Positions 1 through 6,568 of a stretch of DNA of 11,099 nt are shown piece by piece. This stretch comes from a virus. Each line of letters opens with the position of its first letter. Position 1 is the stretch's first letter. The notes under the pieces are model-generated. The model saw only the letters and a list, made by a program, of their open reading frames with translations, was not told the DNA's origin and did not search any database. The stretch lies in the UHGV virus genome UHGV-0313617. One strand, given 5' to 3'. The translations under genes and the position numbers were made by a program.

Positions 1-80
1 AGGCAAAATGCAACGGCGCTAACCAATAAGAGACAATGAGACGGGAATTATTATTACACGCGTGCGCGCCCGTTTCAATA

Positions 81-109
81 TCCAAAGGATTTGACACCTT
101 TCGGTTTTA
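81..109 (+). promoter_or_regulatory. Sigma70-like promoter candidate upstream of the first gene
   Basis: TTGACA (81-86), 17-nt spacer, TAGTTT (104-109). A GAGGG Shine-Dalgarno lies at 139-143, 7 nt before the ATG at 151. Confidence 0.5.
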
Positions 110-150
110 GGTGTAGTTTCGTTGGTCATTAACCAACTGAGGGCAGAGCA

Positions 151-490: not shown

Positions 491-2755
491 ATGAGCTTAA
501 TTAAATTCGCTGTAACAAGACCCGCTAAAAAAGGCGAAAAAGCCAGGGCGGAAAACTTCCAGATGACCACCGATGAATTTTTCGAATTTATCAAAGATGC
601 GAAAGAAATCTCCTCGGTGCATATCAACAAGACGGAAGATAAAGCCGAGTATGCGCGCCGCAAGCGTAAGGCCGACGGCATCGTGGCGTATACCAGTGAC
701 GGATTGCGTCGTAAGACCAGTGCGGTGGACCGCTCGATCCTGTTCTTCGATATCGACCGTACCGACACCCGCACCCTACGCCGCTGCCGTAAGGCGTTCA
801 TTGACGCGGGTCTGGAACATGTGTTTCACACCACAACCGGCGACCGTCACCCGCTTAAAGGTGGAACGCGTTGCGCTCGATTCCTGGTGCTCACTGACAA
901 GCCTGTACCGGCTGAAGACCTGGGCCGCGTCCAGTATGCACTATTACACCAACTGGGTCTGTCAGATGTGGACTTCGACGATTGCACGAAAGACACAAAC
1001 CGCCTGATGTACCTGCCACACCAGCAGTCTGTTATTAAGTGCCACTATGGCAAGCGCGCCCGCGTCCGTCGTCTGCTCCGCCTGGCTGACAAGCTGGGGG
1101 TGGAAAAAGAGGAAGTACGCCGCGAGCTTACCCAGGGCGACGACGCAGTGGCAGACGGTATTCTGGACTGGTGCTTCCAGGCAGGATTCGAGGAGTTATC
1201 TTCCGGGCGGGGCTATGAAGTGCCGTGCCCGAACGAACATCTGCACAGCGGCGAAGGGTCCACCGCTATTATGGTCAAGGATGGCGAGATCCGTTTCAAG
1301 TGTATGCACACCGGCAACGAGTGTTGCTCGGAACTGAACAGACACCAGCACCTGGCGCTGCGTCTTATCGGGATCCCGGACCACCTGAACGTCGAGCCAC
1401 ACAATATGTCCCGTAAGCAAATCGCCGCCATCCTTCCGGGGCTGGACGACGAGGAAGTCGAATCCTTATATGAACATATTGTTGATGCGGTTGGCGACGG
1501 CGAAGAATACGGCGTGTGCACCGATGCGGATCTGGATAACGAGCCGGTTGCGCTGTTCAGTAAGCACGACCCGATTATCGAGGGGTTGATTAACTTTAAA
1601 TCGACCTGGTACATGGCGGGTGAGTCGAATATAGGTAAGTCTTTCTACGTGCTGGGCCAGATGGGCGCGGTTGCCGCGGGTATTCCGTTTGGCGGTGCGA
1701 AGGTCGTCCAGTCTCATTGCTTCTATTTTGACGCGGAAGGTGGCGAAGCCTCCAACCAGCGTAAAGAAGCATTGCAGATTAAATATGAGCACGACCTGGA
1801 CAAGCTGCACATTATAGACCTGCAGTCACGCGGCTGGGATATCACCAGCAAATCAGGCTTGCGCGAAGTTATCAGCTTTATCAACCGCACCGCTAACGGC
1901 GAACCGGTTGGCCTGGTGGCGTTCGACTCACTCAACCAGACTGTTGCGTTGCGGTCCGCTGATGCTAAACCGTTCGACGAGAACAACGCCAGCGATATGG
2001 GTGAAGTGGTCAAAGCGCTGAAGGCCATCGCGGAAAATACAGGTGGCAGTGCGGGCGTCATCCACCACCCGGCTAAAGGTGCAAACGGCAGCAGAACGCC
2101 ACGCGGGTCCGGCGCGCTGCATGGTGCTGTCGATTCTGCGTTCTTCCTGGAACAGCCGGACGACAACCAGCCCGGACAATTGAACCTGTATCACGAAAAG
2201 TCACGTAACGGCATCAAGCAAGCGCCGCGCGGCTTCGTCCTGCTCAAGTGCAAGGTGAAGGTGGATCTCCGCAAGTCAGAAGCGTTCGAGGCGCACCAGT
2301 CCACCAGCACCGGGCCAGACTTTGGCGACGTGGTTGCCGGATGGGACGTCAAGCCGATTGCCTCCACGCCACGCGACGAGACTCTCTACCTCGTACCGGT
2401 TGCCCTGGCACCTTTCGCTATTGAACAGGCGAAGGCGGCGGGCAAGGCCGCGGTTAAGGAAGAGAACACCGCCGGACCGCGCAACGAAAAAGAGAAAGTG
2501 CTTTATGCGGCACTGGAAAAACTGATGGAAGATAACCCGGACCATACTGGATTCAGTAAATCGGCAATTGTCCGCCAGGCGGGACTCGCAAAAGGGGGCA
2601 CGTCGACGAAGGCAATCGACGATATGGTGGAGCGCGGAGTAATAGGTTTTTATACCGATCCGCACACCGGGGCCCTCTATGGGTCGTCTAATTTGGTCAT
2701 CAAATCGGATATCCCTATCACGCTTTCAGCGACCGATGACGATTTAAAAGATTAA
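491..2755 (+). CDS. Replication protein: primase-polymerase-like N-terminal domain, Cys/His zinc-ribbon, RecA-like (AAA_25/RepA-type) ATPase, C-terminal putative winged-helix domain
   Basis: 754-aa ORF. Acidic DxD motif ILFFDIDRTD (nt ~741-764). Cys/His cluster CPNEHLHSG...FKCMHTGNECC (nt ~1225-1325). Walker A GESNIGKS (nt 1619-1642) and Walker B-like LVAFDSL. C-terminal ~100 aa look like a small helical DNA-binding domain. Confidence 0.85.
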   Translation: MSLIKFAVTRPAKKGEKARAENFQMTTDEFFEFIKDAKEISSVHINKTEDKAEYARRKRKADGIVAYTSDGLRRKTSAVDRSILFFDIDRTDTRTLRRCRKAFIDAGLEHVFHTTTGDRHPLKGGTRCARFLVLTDKPVPAEDLGRVQYALLHQLGLSDVDFDDCTKDTNRLMYLPHQQSVIKCHYGKRARVRRLLRLADKLGVEKEEVRRELTQGDDAVADGILDWCFQAGFEELSSGRGYEVPCPNEHLHSGEGSTAIMVKDGEIRFKCMHTGNECCSELNRHQHLALRLIGIPDHLNVEPHNMSRKQIAAILPGLDDEEVESLYEHIVDAVGDGEEYGVCTDADLDNEPVALFSKHDPIIEGLINFKSTWYMAGESNIGKSFYVLGQMGAVAAGIPFGGAKVVQSHCFYFDAEGGEASNQRKEALQIKYEHDLDKLHIIDLQSRGWDITSKSGLREVISFINRTANGEPVGLVAFDSLNQTVALRSADAKPFDENNASDMGEVVKALKAIAENTGGSAGVIHHPAKGANGSRTPRGSGALHGAVDSAFFLEQPDDNQPGQLNLYHEKSRNGIKQAPRGFVLLKCKVKVDLRKSEAFEAHQSTSTGPDFGDVVAGWDVKPIASTPRDETLYLVPVALAPFAIEQAKAAGKAAVKEENTAGPRNEKEKVLYAALEKLMEDNPDHTGFSKSAIVRQAGLAKGGTSTKAIDDMVERGVIGFYTDPHTGALYGSSNLVIKSDIPITLSATDDDLKD

Positions 2756-2830
2756 ATTCTGCGCGCATTGGTTGCCGATATGGGAATTCCCATATCGGTA
2801 AAAGATTAAATTCTGCGCGCATTGGTTGCC
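2745..2830. repeat. Two identical 32-bp direct repeats flanking a 20-bp perfect palindrome
   Basis: TAAAAGATTAAATTCTGCGCGCATTGGTTGCC at 2745-2776 and 2799-2830. The first copy overlaps the stop codon of the replication gene. Between them lies GATATGGGAATTCCCATATC (2777-2796), a perfect palindrome. Each repeat holds the 8-bp palindrome TGCGCGCA and ends in ATTGGTTGCC. Confidence 0.9.
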
Positions 2831-2915
2831 ATTTTGAGTGTTTTTATCTGGTCGTATTGGTTGCCGTGTAGTGTAAATATAGTGAATAGTTATGCAATAA
2901 AACTGCATAAAGTAA

Positions 2916-3018
2916 GCGGGACAAAAAGCGGGACAGACCAGGGGCGGGACAAAGCGGGACAGCACCCCTGTCCCGCCCCGGATGACGCGGCCTGGCGAGG
3001 AGCGGGACAGCGGGACAG
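2916..3018. repeat. Array of seven GCGGGACA(G/A) iteron-like repeats including a perfect 9-bp-stem hairpin
   Basis: Copies at 2916, 2928, 2944, 2954, 3002 and 3010 (forward) and 2968-2976 (inverted). 2954-2976 reads GCGGGACAG-caccc-CTGTCCCGC. An AT-rich stretch (2866-2915) precedes the array. Confidence 0.85.
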
Positions 3019-3024
3019 CACCCC

Positions 3025-3073
3025 AGTCTTTCAGACTAGACGGGGGGTCTGGCACCCCCCTCGTCTGAGACTG
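3025..3073. repeat. Imperfect inverted repeat / hairpin with a GGGGGG...CCCCCC core
   Basis: CAGTCTTTCAGACTAGACGGGGGG-tctggca-CCCCCCTCGTCTGAGACTG. The arms CAGTCT/AGACTG, CAGAC/GTCTG and G6/C6 pair, with bulges. Confidence 0.7.
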
Positions 3074-3232
3074 CATAAAATCCGGGATTGCATAATACAC
3101 GGCAACAAGATGCGAATTGCGGTCGTCGATGAACTAGGCAACCAATGCGAGTTGCAGAATGGTGGGTGAAAAATGCAGTTTGCAGTTTCAGCAGATAGCG
3201 ATCAACTTTTTCATACGCGTGATTAATATTGG

Positions 3233-3261
3233 TTGCGCCCACCCCAGCACCCTGCTATATT
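3233..3261 (+). promoter_or_regulatory. Promoter candidate for the downstream small-gene cluster, overlapped by ATTGGTTGC motifs
   Basis: TTGCGC (3233-3238), 17-nt spacer, TATATT (3256-3261). ATTGGTTGC copies at 3228-3237 and 3259-3268 overlap the -35 and the -10/+1 region. Confidence 0.4.
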
Positions 3262-3289
3262 GGTTGCACACCAACATGAGGACTGAACG

Positions 3290-3595
3290 ATGAGAGCTTT
3301 AATCTGGAATTACACAATGGCGGTGGCGAAGCTGTATGAAGCGAAGCACACAGACAGCAACGCAGACGACGCGCGCCAGGTTGTCATCCTGGCCCAGCAG
3401 GGAATCATGCACGCGTTCGATGATATGTTTGCCAGCCTGGACGAACTGGAACCGCTGCGCGTGGCAATCTGCGAATATGCGATGGCTTTTGCCCGCGAGC
3501 GCCTGGCGTATCGCTTCGGGATCGGTGAGACGGCAGTGACAAACGTCGCCCGGATTAAAGCCCAGCGCGAGCTATTCGCCCAGCTTGCGAAATAA
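3290..3595 (+). CDS. Hypothetical protein
   Basis: 101-aa ORF with a GAGGA Shine-Dalgarno 7 nt upstream of the ATG. No recognisable motif. Confidence 0.6.
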   Translation: MRALIWNYTMAVAKLYEAKHTDSNADDARQVVILAQQGIMHAFDDMFASLDELEPLRVAICEYAMAFARERLAYRFGIGETAVTNVARIKAQRELFAQLAK

Positions 3596-3604
3596 GGGGG
3601 CAAA

Positions 3605-3874
3605 ATGGACCGCAGACGCGCAAAACGGCTTTCCTGGAGCATTAGCCTGCATTGCGTACGAATATGGGCTGAGAATGCGAATGAGGGCGATTCTGTGTTC
3701 TGGAGTTATCGCGACGATGTGAAGCCATTAACGCAGACCCGCTACTTGCGCCAGTTCGCAGCGAAGCACGGATTCTATGTGCGGACTTCCTTGCAACCAA
3801 TGGGTGTTCGTATTACATTACGCCGGAAGCCTGCCATTGAGCGGGCAGGAAAACACTGGAGACTGAGCAAATGA
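3605..3874 (+). CDS. Hypothetical basic protein
   Basis: 89-aa ORF with an AGGGGG Shine-Dalgarno just upstream. Arg/Lys-rich. Its stop overlaps the next start (ATGA). Confidence 0.6.
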   Translation: MDRRRAKRLSWSISLHCVRIWAENANEGDSVFWSYRDDVKPLTQTRYLRQFAAKHGFYVRTSLQPMGVRITLRRKPAIERAGKHWRLSK

Positions 3875-4035
3875 ACAAGCAACCTGAACGCTGGCGGAGT
3901 AAGGCCACGCGACTGACTTACTTCGTGACAGAAGAAGCAAACGGCAACGTGACTATTTCACACCCTAAGTGTGGTACTCGCCGCACTATCTCGCGCCTCA
4001 CATTAGTTCGTAACTACAGGAGATTGACAGAATGA
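3871..4035 (+). CDS. Hypothetical small protein (54 aa)
   Basis: Not in the supplied ORF track; read by hand as MNKQPERWRSKATRLTYFVTEEANGNVTISHPKCGTRRTISRLTLVRNYRRLTE. ATGA overlap with the upstream gene (3871-3874) and with the downstream gene (4032-4035). GGAG lies 9 nt upstream. Confidence 0.45.
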   Translation: MNKQPERWRSKATRLTYFVTEEANGNVTISHPKCGTRRTISRLTLVRNYRRLTE

Positions 4036-4571
4036 AAATGATATTCCGCAATAAGCATAATGGGAGATTCCTTACCCCGATTGAAGTGCTGCCGAACTAT
4101 GTTCGCATGTACCATGAAGCCAGCGACCGCGTATTCTGGTACAAGAAAGCCACCCTGCATGAGCATTTGCAGGTAGTGCACCATGACGTCCGCGTAGGTG
4201 ATGTGCTGCGTGATGTGCGTGACGGGTCGCTGTTAGAGGTGCTCCGCGTGAGCACGGACGGCGTTATGCTGCGCAGTGGTAAAACACAACGCGGCGTTCT
4301 GCTCACGGGCCTGGTGAATTACGCCCGCGTAGGCCGTAACTATAAACTTAAGCGCCCTGGTGTAGTGGCGAAAGAGATCACCCGTACGGAACACCCATAT
4401 ACCAAATACGACGAGCGCAAGGTGCGCGAGCATATCGACAACGCCAGGGCGCAAGCTGCCGCCATGATTCAGGCTGGCAACGATGCCAAACGATTTGGGA
4501 TTGGTGTTATTCTGGTCTACCCCGACGGCAGCATGAAGTCTACCGATCCGCGCGGGGTCATTCAGAAATGA
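4032..4571 (+). CDS. Hypothetical protein
   Basis: 179-aa ORF with an AGGAG Shine-Dalgarno at 4018-4022, 9 nt before the ATG. Protein-like composition and no Cys. No recognisable motif. Confidence 0.65.
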   Translation: MKMIFRNKHNGRFLTPIEVLPNYVRMYHEASDRVFWYKKATLHEHLQVVHHDVRVGDVLRDVRDGSLLEVLRVSTDGVMLRSGKTQRGVLLTGLVNYARVGRNYKLKRPGVVAKEITRTEHPYTKYDERKVREHIDNARAQAAAMIQAGNDAKRFGIGVILVYPDGSMKSTDPRGVIQK

Positions 4572-4708
4572 GTGCGACGATCCGGGATATGCTTCAGCAT
4601 AACCGCTTTGAGATAGGCGGTCGGGTATTTCGCAATTACTTCGTGGCGCGTGCATGGGCGCGCCATATTGGCAAGCCGGAAGGGGCAATTCGATGCTACA
4701 CGATTTGA
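4568..4708 (+). CDS. Hypothetical small protein (46 aa)
   Basis: Read by hand: MSATIRDMLQHNRFEIGGRVFRNYFVARAWARHIGKPEGAIRCYTI. Its ATG overlaps the stop of the upstream gene (ATGA at 4568-4571). No strong Shine-Dalgarno, so it would depend on translational coupling. Confidence 0.35.
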   Translation: MSATIRDMLQHNRFEIGGRVFRNYFVARAWARHIGKPEGAIRCYTI

Positions 4709-4980
4709 TATATTGGTTTGGATTGGGGTGTGCGACACTCTTTGCTATGGTGCTGGCGCTGTTGGTGTGGGTCTTCCTGATTTGGCCCGCTGTGGAAGCT
4801 GCCAGTATTACCCGCATGACGTTCCAGATATACAAGCGCCGTGGAATCACGGAGCACCCGACCAGGTTGCGCATGTGGTGGCTGTGGTATCGCGATATGA
4901 TAGGGGGCCGGATGTTCGAGGCCGTCCGATCGGAAGGGTGGGAGTGGAAAGGCGTCGGCAAGTGGTCCATTTTCGATTAA
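4693..4980 (+). CDS. Hypothetical single-pass membrane protein with a Trp/Arg-rich C-terminal region
   Basis: AAGGGG Shine-Dalgarno at 4681-4686, 6 nt before the ATG at 4693. One hydrophobic helix (IYWFGLGCATLFAMVLALLVWVFLIW). The track's longer version starts at 4654 in the same frame but has no RBS. Confidence 0.55.
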   Translation: MLHDLIYWFGLGCATLFAMVLALLVWVFLIWPAVEAASITRMTFQIYKRRGITEHPTRLRMWWLWYRDMIGGRMFEAVRSEGWEWKGVGKWSIFD

Positions 4981-4997
4981 TTATGCAAGCGTGATAT

Positions 4998-5032
4998 AGT
5001 CCCAGTGAGATAAAACTTACTGGGACTTTTTT
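4998..5032 (+). terminator. Rho-independent terminator candidate directly abutting the holin start codon
   Basis: Stem AGTCCCAGT (4998-5006) pairs with ACTGGGACT (5017-5025), followed by TTTTTT (5026-5032). The next base is the ATG at 5033. Confidence 0.6.
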
Positions 5033-5323
5033 ATGGATAAGCTAAACGAGTGGTTATTCGCCCTTGCGTGTCTTGCTGGTGGCTTCGTAGGCGCACGCAT
5101 TCATGGCGAGGCAACGAAAGGGCCGTTGAACTTCGTTTTATATATCGTGGTTGGCTTCCTGTGTGCCATATTTGGTGCTCCAGCTATTGCCGAGTGGTCT
5201 GGTTTGTCTGGCGAGCGCACTGTCGCCGGTTTGGGCTTCGTAACTGCCATCTTCTGGATGCCAATAGCTGACCGGATCCGGGAGACAATTGCGACGCTAC
5301 ACCTTCCGGGGGGCGCGAAATGA
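5033..5323 (+). CDS. Putative holin (three predicted transmembrane segments, charged C-terminus)
   Basis: 96 aa. Hydrophobic segments WLFALACLAGGFVGA, LNFVLYIVVGFLCAIFGAPAIA and VAGLGFVTAIFWMPIA. Sits immediately upstream of the endolysin. Stop overlaps the next start (ATGA). Confidence 0.7.
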   Translation: MDKLNEWLFALACLAGGFVGARIHGEATKGPLNFVLYIVVGFLCAIFGAPAIAEWSGLSGERTVAGLGFVTAIFWMPIADRIRETIATLHLPGGAK

Positions 5324-5565
5324 TTATTACCGTCCTGTTGTTTGTTATCATAGGGGCTTCGTCCCTGTTTAACGTGTATGCGCCGTCCGTCCAGGACGGC
5401 ATCTTAGGCCGGGTGTTGTATCTGTTAACGGCAATGGTCTGTATTATCGGATTGTTGCAAACAGGAGACGTATCAGATACCACCTGGACCGCGTTAATCT
5501 GGCTGTTTGCATTGCGCACCCTGCGTAATGCTGTTTTGAATGGGGTAAAACATGCGATTCAGTGA
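5320..5565 (+). CDS. Second holin-like small membrane protein (holin, antiholin or partner)
   Basis: 81 aa with 2-3 hydrophobic segments (IITVLLFVIIGASSLF, ILGRVLYLLTAMVCIIGLL, WTALIWLFAL) and a basic C-terminus. Overlaps both neighbours. Confidence 0.65.
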   Translation: MIITVLLFVIIGASSLFNVYAPSVQDGILGRVLYLLTAMVCIIGLLQTGDVSDTTWTALIWLFALRTLRNAVLNGVKHAIQ

Positions 5566-6043
5566 CAACGGTCTACGATTTACGGCAGCCTGGGAGGCAT
5601 TCAGCCCAGTGCCGTATTTCGCGACCAAGAAAGAGCAGGCCCGCGGCCTGTACACCTGGGGCTATGGTCACACCGGCACTAATCCGCCACGAAGCATTAC
5701 CCGTGCGGAAGCGCTGGAACTGCTCAAGCGAGATGTGGCGTATGCCGAGGACTGGGTGAACAAATACGCACATCCGAGCATTAACCAGGCGCAATTCGAC
5801 GCGCTGGTGGATCTGGTAATCAACGCCGGTCCTGGTCCGATCGTGCCGGATGACGTCGCGAACGATTTCGATGATGCGGTGCGACTGGGCGACTGGGCGA
5901 AGGTCCGTGCTATTCTGCCGCAGTTCCGCAAGCAAGGCGGATCGGTGCTCTTAGGTCTGGTCCGTCGCGCAATCGGCAGGCAAGCACTATTCGAGGGTAA
6001 GCAGTGGGACGTTGCCGAGAAAATCGGGCGTAACGCAGCATAA
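5552..6043 (+). CDS. Endolysin, phage lysozyme (glycoside hydrolase family 24-like)
   Basis: 163 aa. Motifs typical of T4/P22-type lysozymes as I recall them: N-terminal Glu (WEAF), GYGHTG, NQAQFDALVDLVINAG, and a C-terminal RRAIGRQALF. Positioned after the holin genes. Confidence 0.8.
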   Translation: MRFSDNGLRFTAAWEAFSPVPYFATKKEQARGLYTWGYGHTGTNPPRSITRAEALELLKRDVAYAEDWVNKYAHPSINQAQFDALVDLVINAGPGPIVPDDVANDFDDAVRLGDWAKVRAILPQFRKQGGSVLLGLVRRAIGRQALFEGKQWDVAEKIGRNAA

Positions 6044-6059
6044 TACGAGGTAACACAGT

Positions 6060-6473
6060 ATGTTAAAAAGCATTCTTGATCATAACGCCGACGCACTTGC
6101 TGCACTGGCTAAAACCGAAGACCCTGGCGCACGCGCTATCATCGCGGACACTATCAGCCATGCAGGCGTCTTTGACGCTAAGCTGCCGAGTGTTCCGGAA
6201 AGAAAGCCCGTGAAAAGTGCTACCGTGACTATCACACCGAATTCAGTCGCAGTTGACGGAACGGCTACTGCTTCTGTTGACGTCTTGCCCGCTGACGCGA
6301 CTAACAAGACAGGGGTCTGGGTGTCTACGAACCCTGCCGGTGCAGAAATCGATGCAAAAACTGGCAAAATCACAGCAAAATCGGCAGGTGGCGTTTATAT
6401 GTTTTGGGTGGCTGCCGACGGTAGTGGGGTGCTGGGGTCTGCGACCATCAACGTAACGGAAAAAGTAGAATAA
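6060..6473 (+). CDS. Big_2 (bacterial Ig-like) domain protein of unknown role
   Basis: 137 aa with a GAGG Shine-Dalgarno 9 nt upstream. The C-terminal ~85 aa (ATVTITPNSVAVDGTATASVDVLPADATNKTGVWVSTNPAGAEIDAKTGKITAKSAGGVYMFWVAADGSGVLGSATINVT) match the Big_2 beta-sandwich pattern. No signal peptide or transmembrane segment. Confidence 0.7.
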   Translation: MLKSILDHNADALAALAKTEDPGARAIIADTISHAGVFDAKLPSVPERKPVKSATVTITPNSVAVDGTATASVDVLPADATNKTGVWVSTNPAGAEIDAKTGKITAKSAGGVYMFWVAADGSGVLGSATINVTEKVE

Positions 6474-6479
6474 AACACA

Positions 6480-6503
6480 AGCCCGGAATCAACCGGGCTT
6501 TTT
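6480..6503 (+). terminator. Rho-independent terminator after the lysis cassette
   Basis: Stem AGCCCGG (6480-6486), loop AATCAA, stem CCGGGCT (6493-6499), then a T-run to 6503. Confidence 0.75.
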
Positions 6504-6508
6504 ATTGC

Positions 6509-6537
6509 TTGACTCGCAACCAACATAGGCCCATACT
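6509..6537 (+). promoter_or_regulatory. Weak promoter candidate carrying two GCAACCAA motifs
   Basis: TTGACT (6509-6514), 17-nt spacer, CATACT (6532-6537, poor -10). GCAACCAA at 6516-6523 and 6538-6545. A strong Shine-Dalgarno (GAGGAGGAGGA, 6548-6558) follows. Confidence 0.35.
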
Positions 6538-6568
6538 GCAACCAAACGAGGAGGAGGAGTAACACATC

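Follow-up and report, generated by a model that had tools for sequence, protein, structure and literature searches.

A short asymmetric box recurs on predicted Dhillonvirus promoters and beside an origin-like region

Introduction

What reads a nine-base word that recurs on the predicted promoters of a virulent phage? The question is raised by an 11,099-nucleotide stretch of the virus genome UHGV-0313617, which was analysed as a whole and is referred to here as the window. The word, hereafter the box, is the 9-mer ATTGGTTGC, with the 8-mer core TTGGTTGC. A first-pass annotation, made from the letters of the window alone, had proposed that it is the recognition site of a regulator encoded by the phage or of its replication initiator. 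Here, we demonstrate the enrichment, placement, conservation and cross-genus distribution of the box, from which we infer protein binding, repression and what kind of protein the reader may be. The interpretation that we favour, and hold to be probable, is that the box is a recognition site whose occupation at promoters occludes RNA polymerase as a common negative control, and that convergent copies mark or insulate the replication origin.

The window comes from a Dhillonvirus, i.e. one of the HK578/SO-1-like virulent siphophages of Escherichia coli with genomes of ~44 kb. It is matched by 159 phage records, nearly all of them Dhillonvirus, the closest being phiEco273 with 98% identity over 2500-4100. 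These phages are frequent in collections (BASEL), and are found among the SECphi phages and among the phages used for therapy and for testing defence systems. In literature searches that included HK578, SO-1 and transcriptomes, we found no paper on Dhillonvirus promoters, operators, origin or the box motif, and a full-text search with the motif string returned primer sequences only. The SO-1 record marks two regions, A and B, merely as repeat regions.

Enrichment and form of the box

The exact 9-mer occurs seven times in the window against 0.13 expected, and the core 8-mer nine times against 0.47; none of 200 shuffles reached seven or nine copies, respectively. Allowing one mismatch to the 9-mer gains only the sites at 6516-6523 and 6538-6545. 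The first-pass annotation had spoken of nine copies of a 9-mer, with ~0.1 expected by chance. Its nine sites are real, its coordinates are all correct and the excess is as large as it claimed, but the set consists of seven exact 9-mers plus two 8-mer cores. As it had also noted, six copies lie in non-coding DNA, all within the 534-bp stretch 2756-3289, and the four upstream copies of this stretch have the 13-mer CGCATTGGTTGCC in common. A weight matrix from 94 distinct sites reads A-TTGGTTGC-A/c, and since the flanks add no further information, the box is asymmetric and 9-10 bp long. As a control word to replace TTGGTTGC, we propose TTCCTAGC.

The enrichment extends to whole genomes. Six complete Dhillonvirus genomes have 19-23 boxes each, where ~2 are expected, and ~70-80% of these lie in intergenic DNA, which makes up 6-8% of the genome (P about 1e-13 to 1e-16). 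A count over the full genome, which had been suggested as a check on the window, gave 19 copies against 1.9 expected in phiEco273, and the intergenic preference is equally clear in PaulFeyerabend (17 of 21 boxes touch the 7.8% of intergenic DNA, P=6e-16) and in SO-1 (15 of 21 intergenic, P=5e-14). In genome L002, 8 of the 20 intergenic regions of at least 40 bp bear a box. The placement count across PaulFeyerabend found no box in region A or in the intergenic regions inside the late structural operon. At the box sites of the window there is no Rfam family at gathering score and no tRNA; the sites are not explained by either, which we count in favour of a protein recognition site.

Placement on predicted promoters

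Many boxes sit on sites that resemble sigma70-type promoters, in which a -35-like and a -10-like hexamer stand ahead of a gene block with 16-18 bp between them. Those of the window are listed in Table 1, and there are equivalents in L002, in L158 and in the Edwardsiella phage eiAU. The promoter at 6509-6537 was found by a consensus scan, and those at 3233-3261, 91-119 and 3791-3819 by a looser scripted scan and by eye. Their transcripts are predicted to start ~7 nt downstream of 3261, 6537, 119 and 3819. Box positions were classified in the window, L002, eiAU and L158 relative to the pattern TTGnnn-16..18-TAnnnT, taking the -10 hexamer as -12 to -7, by both a scripted scan and manual mapping, with the same result.

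The first-pass annotation had placed two pairs of copies on promoters, and both placements hold. The copies at 3228 and 3259 overlap, respectively, the -35 (TTGCGC, 3233-3238) and the -10/+1 (TATATT, 3256-3261) of one promoter. In the other, TTGACT(6509)-17-CATACT(6537), the spacer contains the copy at 6516, and the copy at 6538 comes right behind the -10. Across the classified promoters, forward boxes start at -39/-40 (9 cases), where the TTGC of the box begins the -35 hexamer, or at -7/-8 (5 cases), which yields TATATTGGTTGC. Reverse boxes start at -33/-34 (4 cases, yielding TTGCAA), -28/-29 (3 cases) or -5/-6 (2 cases), and boxes of either orientation are found at -21/-22, just upstream of the -10 (4 cases). 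Promoter 3233-3261 thus combines the two forward classes, and promoter 6509-6537 the reverse classes at -28/-29 and -5/-6. Some 10 promoters carry a box between -40 and +3, the placement of dispersed operators; of the ten L002 promoters mapped by hand, eight have an exact box between -22 and +3. The internal site at 3791-3819, which is also promoter-like, could drive the genes from 3871 on.

Each genome additionally has three palindromes of the form TTGGT-N5-ACCAA (four in L005, in which the terminal region is repeated), and N5 is the sole spacing seen. One of them, at 122-136, occupies the +1 region of the promoter of the operon that encodes a helix-turn-helix (HTH) protein and a primase-helicase.

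It may be asked whether the box is simply an intrinsic part of these promoters, i.e. an extended -35-like element (TTGCA) for sigma70 or a phage-modified polymerase, as is the T4 MotA box. The commonest class does set TTGC(A) on the -35, and one reverse class yields TTGCAA, but boxes occur in both orientations, between -22 and -15, across -10/+1 and at origin flanks where there is no convincing promoter. Moreover, the TTGG half falls outside the -35 and yet varies no more than the TTGC half. We regard this explanation as very unlikely.

Conservation and distribution across genera

Among 13-20 distinct Dhillonvirus sequences, there is no variation in the boxes and in a few bases beside them, whereas the promoter spacers in between do vary, so that the box is conserved above the surrounding non-coding DNA in the manner of an operator. 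Metagenomic relatives with ~70% identity in the primase gene have the exact box at orthologous promoters, although their intergenic DNA no longer aligns. In a divergent set of relatives (L006-L008), an exact box stands where the window has the palindrome 122-136, downstream of the HTH promoter.

The box is also found outside the genus. In Edwardsiella phage eiAU (Eiauvirus), whose primase-helicase is 45-47% identical, we counted 23 boxes, and 17 of these are intergenic (P=5e-13). There are ten downstream of the primase-helicase gene and five in the region A of eiAU itself; the remainder form promoter pairs, whose architectures are those of Dhillonvirus, e.g. TTGGTTGCAT-N17-TATAGTTGGTTGC. In Serratia phage Tsm2, the 3' end of the primase-helicase gene contains four direct copies, and a fifth copy lies in the divergent control region. 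In a set of 42 IMG/VR loci with relatives of the primase-helicase, every Dhillonvirus-like locus has the box, as do a 48-49%-identical group (L156-161, L178) and the eiAU-like locus; the SE1-like loci lack the exact box. The SE1-like Salmonella phages have instead the variant TTGGCTG, (A)TGTTGGCTG, placed around the origin in the same way, with two copies within the final 60 bp of the gene, two more, inverted, beside the element TGAATAGTTATGCA and one ahead of the first downstream gene. The box family therefore comprises two variants (T/C) over at least three taxa and, judged from the sequences, its most conserved location is the flanks of the origin-like region beside the primase-helicase gene.

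A separate scan of IMG/VR for three boxes within 30 bp returned, among the matches listed, nearly all unrelated tandem or coding repeats, and none of those listed encoded relatives of the window proteins. A few iteron-like clusters that it showed beside replication genes, in L046 (inside a gene for a DnaD-like initiator) and L122 (by a DUF3987 gene), are a product of how the scan selects, and we do not treat them as evidence.

Such a distribution might be explained if the box were read, at promoters and origin alike, by a conserved DNA-binding protein of the Enterobacterales hosts. The 8-mer is constant in phages of Escherichia, Shigella, Sodalis, Edwardsiella and Serratia whose own proteins are 45-70% identical, neighbouring phage regulators have been exchanged while the box has not changed and just two variants occur across the whole group. 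The half-site TTGGT presumably resembles the operators of FadR-subfamily GntR regulators (PdhR, UxuR/ExuR and LldR), but PdhR-type spacing (N3) is never seen, N5 being the only one. We know of no E. coli global regulator motif that matches TTGGTTGC and, to our knowledge, none of the CytR, PdhR, sigma54, marbox and IHF motifs fits the box. It would also be unusual for so many promoters to rely on a minor host factor, and a host reader seems to us quite improbable.

The origin-like region

Just downstream of the primase-helicase gene, four convergent boxes flank a block of iterons, GCGGGACA, of which there are 8 copies in the window and 7-18 per genome; they also occur in region A of SO-1, outside the window. 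The copy at 3137-3149 pairs with each of those at 2764 and 2818 as a perfect 13-nt inverted repeat that spans the iteron block. The copy at 2767 is present in some genomes and absent in others. Altogether, the window has a cluster of six boxes within 500 bp after the stop codon of the putative initiator gene, and the corresponding clusters number ten copies in eiAU, four (inside the gene) in Tsm2 and three to six of the variant in SE1-like phages.

Other lineages have different iterons in the same position (TCCGACA, AGGGATAA or TTGCGAGT), and their rapid change keeps pace with that of the primase-helicase C-terminal domain, which is variable. The iteron block is probably the true origin, with initiator iterons. 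The lineage iterons behave as repeats that co-evolve with the DNA-binding domain of an initiator. The box does not behave in this way, being unchanged where the C-terminal domain diverges and having most of its copies dispersed in promoters.

Several further sequences lie in this region. A 54-bp duplication (2745-2830) contains a 32-nt direct repeat at 2745-2776 and 2799-2830 and encloses a 30-bp near-perfect palindrome (2772-2801) with GATATGGGAATTCCCATATC; the duplication is present in the window and PaulFeyerabend, partly in LM40P1 and not in phiEco273, SO-1 or WF5505. The element TGAATAGTTATGCA (2883-2896), which we take to resemble an ARG box and a relaxed DnaA box, is kept beside the box by Dhillonvirus, the 70%-identical relatives and SE1-like phages alike. 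After the iterons, in the region 3024-3073, AGACGGGGGG...CCCCCCTCGTCT form a G/C-rich hairpin that is conserved except for its loop, which varies.

The proximity to the primase-helicase gene raises the possibility that the boxes belong to the replication initiator, as DnaA boxes do. The primase-helicase, or a partner loaded with it, would then read TTGGTTGC, and the gene-side cluster would be part of the origin; the promoter copies would couple initiator occupancy to transcription or load helicase at opened promoters, and the operon palindrome would serve autoregulation as in plasmid Rep systems. The clusters do adjoin the 3' end of the gene or reach into it in all lineages examined, irrespective of the small regulator encoded upstream, and the copies of Tsm2 lie inside the gene as the lambda ori lies inside gene O. 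Boxes flank the lineage-specific iterons and the conserved hairpin, the operon promoter carries a palindromic or exact box and the primase-helicase is among the replication proteins of all box-bearing phages. However, the C-terminal domain, which is predicted to be winged-helix-like, differs between Dhillonvirus and eiAU in spite of their common box and is closer to that of SE1, which has the variant. Region A of Dhillonvirus has GCGGGACA iterons like region B but no box, and most Dhillonvirus copies are embedded in promoters rather than placed at the origin.

The model of the C-terminal domain, built from a single sequence with low confidence (pLDDT 48), has the order H-H-H-strand-strand. It is plausible that this domain reads the iterons, which it fits better than the box because domain and iterons both change fast; as the reader of a slowly evolving box it is a poor candidate. 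On balance, we consider an initiator reading of the box unlikely.

Candidate readers

Returning to the interpretation that we favour, a DNA-binding protein at the promoters, the only recognisable regulator in the window is the 109-aa HTH protein encoded upstream of the primase-helicase. It matches three Pfam families above their gathering thresholds, namely HTH_23 (30.8; threshold 24.6), HTH_28 (28.5; 25) and Sigma70_r4_2 (27.8; 25.7). Its predicted structure (pLDDT 83.5) consists of a 59-residue helix and a tri-helical HTH, and its last 34-36 residues superpose at ~1 A on SdiA, GerE, NarL, IstA and Sin, with no significant Foldseek E-value. The profile matches and the model make it a credible DNA binder. 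The N-terminal ~45 residues are hypervariable and the C-terminal ~60 nearly invariant across lineages.

Were the box the operator of this protein, a proposal that overlaps with our own model, a coiled-coil dimer with flexible heads of the GerE/resolvase type would read single 9-mers in variable arrangements, like NarL heptamers. The near-invariance of the HTH domain matches that of the box across Dhillonvirus-like lineages, and the promoter of the gene is trailed by a box or palindrome. Yet the protein co-occurs with the box only within Dhillonvirus-like phages: eiAU, Tsm2, SE1 and the L156 group lack a homologue and encode at its locus an unrelated XRE-type protein, and eiAU, Tsm2 and the L156 group nevertheless have the same box and the same architectures. 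A profile search and a PDB sequence search for further members of the family gave no informative relatives and none outside Dhillonvirus-like phages. Four Dhillonvirus records, including CHD5UKE2, match the protein at <60% identity; in CHD5UKE2 it is 47% identical and all 20 boxes are kept, and the palindrome at its own promoter is missing. The presence of the box in eiAU without a homologue weakens the case for this protein, and we think it improbable as the reader. The first-pass annotation had named the protein at 151-480, along with the replication protein, for binding assays. Its broader suggestion, a site bound by a protein that is linked with promoters and perhaps also with replication, is backed by the comparative data; the choice of this protein finds no such backing, since eiAU, L156-161 and L178 have the same box positions without it. 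We also observed that, in CHD5UKE2-like phages, the gene looks like a cassette replacement: the protein has 149 aa and 47% identity in the HTH, and the promoter-proximal sequence differs.

Each of the three lineages with promoter-embedded boxes has Nmad5 (PF18757), but some of their loci lack it. We rejected it as a necessary reader: SO-1 does not have it and still has 21 boxes, and it is also missing from Tsm2 and the SE1-like phages, which have origin-flanking boxes. It can be deleted in PhiSMS22, and its gene is toxic to clone and mutates to escape the Tmn defence (PMC11846954). In most Dhillonviruses, the Nmad5 gene is a lone opposite-strand gene of the late region and has its own two-box promoter (L002 5004-5768, minus strand).

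A 57-aa C4 zinc-ribbon protein ('Lar-like'), encoded outside the window and universal, has a loop motif that segregates with the T/C variant. It has no Pfam match, and the segregation reflects a single evolutionary transition confounded with phylogeny, so we treat it as a lead only.

Comparison with known systems

One close likeness may be drawn with the C1 operators of the temperate phage P1, which are asymmetric, scattered over the genome and placed on many promoters in either orientation, with some doubled into partial palindromes. The box shares all of these properties, i.e. asymmetry, scatter, overlap with promoters, either orientation and some partial palindromes. It differs in belonging to a virulent phage, in its length (9 bp rather than 17 bp) and in also flanking the origin; in P1, the reader, C1, is known.

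Like DnaA boxes, the box is an asymmetric 9-mer found in either orientation, in an origin-like cluster and at promoters that include the one of the replication operon. However, ATTGGTTGC does not match the DnaA box TTATNCACA, and most copies of our box are inside core promoters. Plasmid and phage iterons with Rep autoregulation (P1 RepA, F RepE and pSC101; lambda O and the P4 alpha ori/crr) also cluster at or in the initiator gene, with an inverted half-site version at the promoter of that gene, just as is seen here. Unlike in those systems, separate, fast-evolving iterons already lie between the boxes, and the box is slow-evolving and dispersed over the genome.

With the T4 MotA box it has in common that it is a phage-specific 9-bp word near the -35 of promoters served by the host polymerase. 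The MotA box is found at a single position (-30), always in the same orientation, and replaces the -35, whereas our box falls into at least six position classes in both orientations and good -35-like hexamers are retained. NarL/GerE heptamers are likewise short asymmetric units, single or paired, with variable spacing and orientation in promoters, and the HTH of the window protein is of the NarL/GerE type. The sequence is a different one, though, there is no receiver domain or known signal and the link to the HTH protein lacks support outside Dhillonvirus.

A proposed mechanism and its weak points

In the model that we favour, one sequence-specific protein, most likely encoded by the phages and conserved well beyond the genus, would read (A)TTGGTTGC in either orientation. 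Each box-bearing predicted promoter of Dhillonvirus would present it with 1-3 copies in the core (on the -35, in the spacer or across the -10/+1), where the bound protein would compete with the host RNA polymerase; because boxes lie between -22 and +3, the two would be bound to clash. The result would be a common negative control over transcription units, e.g. temporal shut-off or copy-number buffering. This control would take in the HTH/primase-helicase operon, giving autoregulation of the replication operon via the palindrome after its promoter. At the four convergent copies by the iteron block, the same protein would mark or insulate the origin, and the origin-flanking position looks like the ancestral location of the box.

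A number of points weigh against this model. A repressor acting on so many promoters, including one that leads into structural genes, would be an unusual logic. The protein may instead activate or act in both ways, as the commonest class (-39 to -32) is the position of a class II activator. The -35-overlap class is itself partly circular, the box containing TTG and TTGCA, and the origin-flanking copies are not on convincing promoters. We found no Dhillonvirus transcription start site or expression data in the literature. As to the reader, no protein could be tied to the box among the candidates examined (HTH_23, XRE, Nmad5, the primase-helicase C-terminus and the zinc-ribbon): the HTH homologue is missing where eiAU and the L156 group keep the box, the recognition helix of the XRE proteins does not segregate cleanly with the T/C variant and no residue pattern in the primase-helicase C-terminal domain does so.

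Features of the window

The coordinates of the boxes and associated features are collected in Table 1. After position 3289, the window encodes small genes without an assigned function, holins and an endolysin, a Big_2 protein and then terminase and portal.

Table 1. Boxes, predicted promoters and neighbouring features of the window
Feature	Position	Strand	Remarks
Near-box ATTGGTTAG	19-27	-	Downstream of leftward promoter-like site 78-50; invariant in relatives
Predicted promoter TTGACA(91-96)-17-TAGTTT(114-119)	91-119		Would drive HTH and primase-helicase operon
Palindromic box variant TTGGTCATTAACCAA	122-136		Directly after -10 of promoter 91-119; invariant
HTH protein, 109 aa	151-480	+	One long helix, then C-terminal HTH of GerE/resolvase/sigma-r4 type
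Primase-helicase, 754 aa	491-2755	+	AAA_25
Non-coding stretch, 534 bp	2756-3289		Repeat 'region B' of SO-1 record
Box copy ATTGGTTGC	2767-2775	+	13-mer CGCATTGGTTGCC at 2764-2776; first unit of 32-nt direct repeat, just after primase-helicase stop codon
Box copy	2821-2829	+	13-mer CGCATTGGTTGCC at 2818-2830; origin-flanking, left; invariant in 16 distinct Dhillonvirus sequences
Box copy	2856-2864	+	Overlaps GTTGCCGTGTA (2860-2870); origin-flanking, left side
GCGGGACA iteron block	2914-3017	+	Boxes on both flanks; likely origin core
Box copy, reverse	3138-3146	-	GGCAACCAATGCG at 3137-3149; invariant in 19 distinct sequences
Box copy	3228-3236	+	Final four bases TTGC open -35 of promoter 3233-3261
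Sigma70-like promoter TTGCGC-17-TATATT	3233-3261	+	TTGCAT in most relatives; serves gene block from 3290
Box copy	3259-3274	+	Overlaps -10/+1 of promoter 3233-3261; runs into 15-bp palindrome TTGGTTGCACACCAA (3260-3274)
Internal promoter-like site TTGCAA(3791)-17-TACATT(3819)	3791-3819		-35 is TT (3791-3792) plus first four bases of box copy; conserved in other genomes
Box copy	3793-3801	-	Within gene 3605-3874; kept in L001, L002 and L010
Sigma70-like promoter TTGACT-17-CATACT	6509-6537	+	After terminator 6479-6500; heads unit into terminase and structural genes
Box core GCAACCAA	6516-6523	-	Spacer of promoter 6509-6537
Box core GCAACCAA	6538-6545	-	Right after -10, positions -6 to +2; degenerate (GCGACCAA) in some genomes

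The records WF5505 and Zar3M, which are independent, have their left ends at window position 3189, and the first ~2 kb of WF5505 recur at its right end. Because two independent records start there and one repeats its first ~2 kb, the physical left end of the genome and the start of a direct terminal repeat probably lie at ~3189, ~40 bp upstream of promoter 3233-3261.

At the left edge of the window, there is a strong leftward promoter-like site, TTGAAA-17-(TG)AATAAT (78-50, minus strand, 10/12 matches), followed by a hairpin, AGCGCCG...CGGCGCT, and a T-run just beyond the window. Together they would yield an RNA of ~60 nt with AUUGGUUAGC, and the stretch is invariant in 6-20 genomes. This transcript may be a small RNA between divergent operons; the stretch (window 1-78) has no Rfam match.

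The 8-mer ACGGCARC is ~10-fold over-represented, with 46 copies in L002 and 13 in the window (e.g. 2860-2867, minus strand, and 3099-3106, plus strand). It is strand-biased (36 versus 10) and, because it occupies all three reading frames, it is not a simple codon effect; it may be Chi-like or an otherwise skewed oligomer. ACGGCAAC is also the top 8-mer in a Kagunavirus locus and is frequent in Bas71.

Implications

The puzzle posed by the box is that it has remained constant across genera while the regulators next to it were exchanged, so what reads it? A more far-reaching possibility, to which we give a low probability, is that the origin is marked and most promoters are gated by a single conserved reader, which would be a conserved replication protein of the phage (e.g. 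the primase-helicase) or a protein of the host. If true, this one-reader circuit would be older than the genus, being common to Eiauvirus and, in the variant form, to Guernseyvirinae, and it would have outlived the swap of the neighbouring regulator (XRE-type versus HTH_23-type). In phages that use the host RNA polymerase, replication and transcription would then be coupled much as they are through DnaA boxes.

For the phages themselves, the box provides a map, at the level of the sequence, of the Dhillonvirus transcription units and the probable origin. It also offers a handle by which a master regulator may be pulled down, and it makes promoters recognisable and open to de-regulation for the design of synthetic phages.

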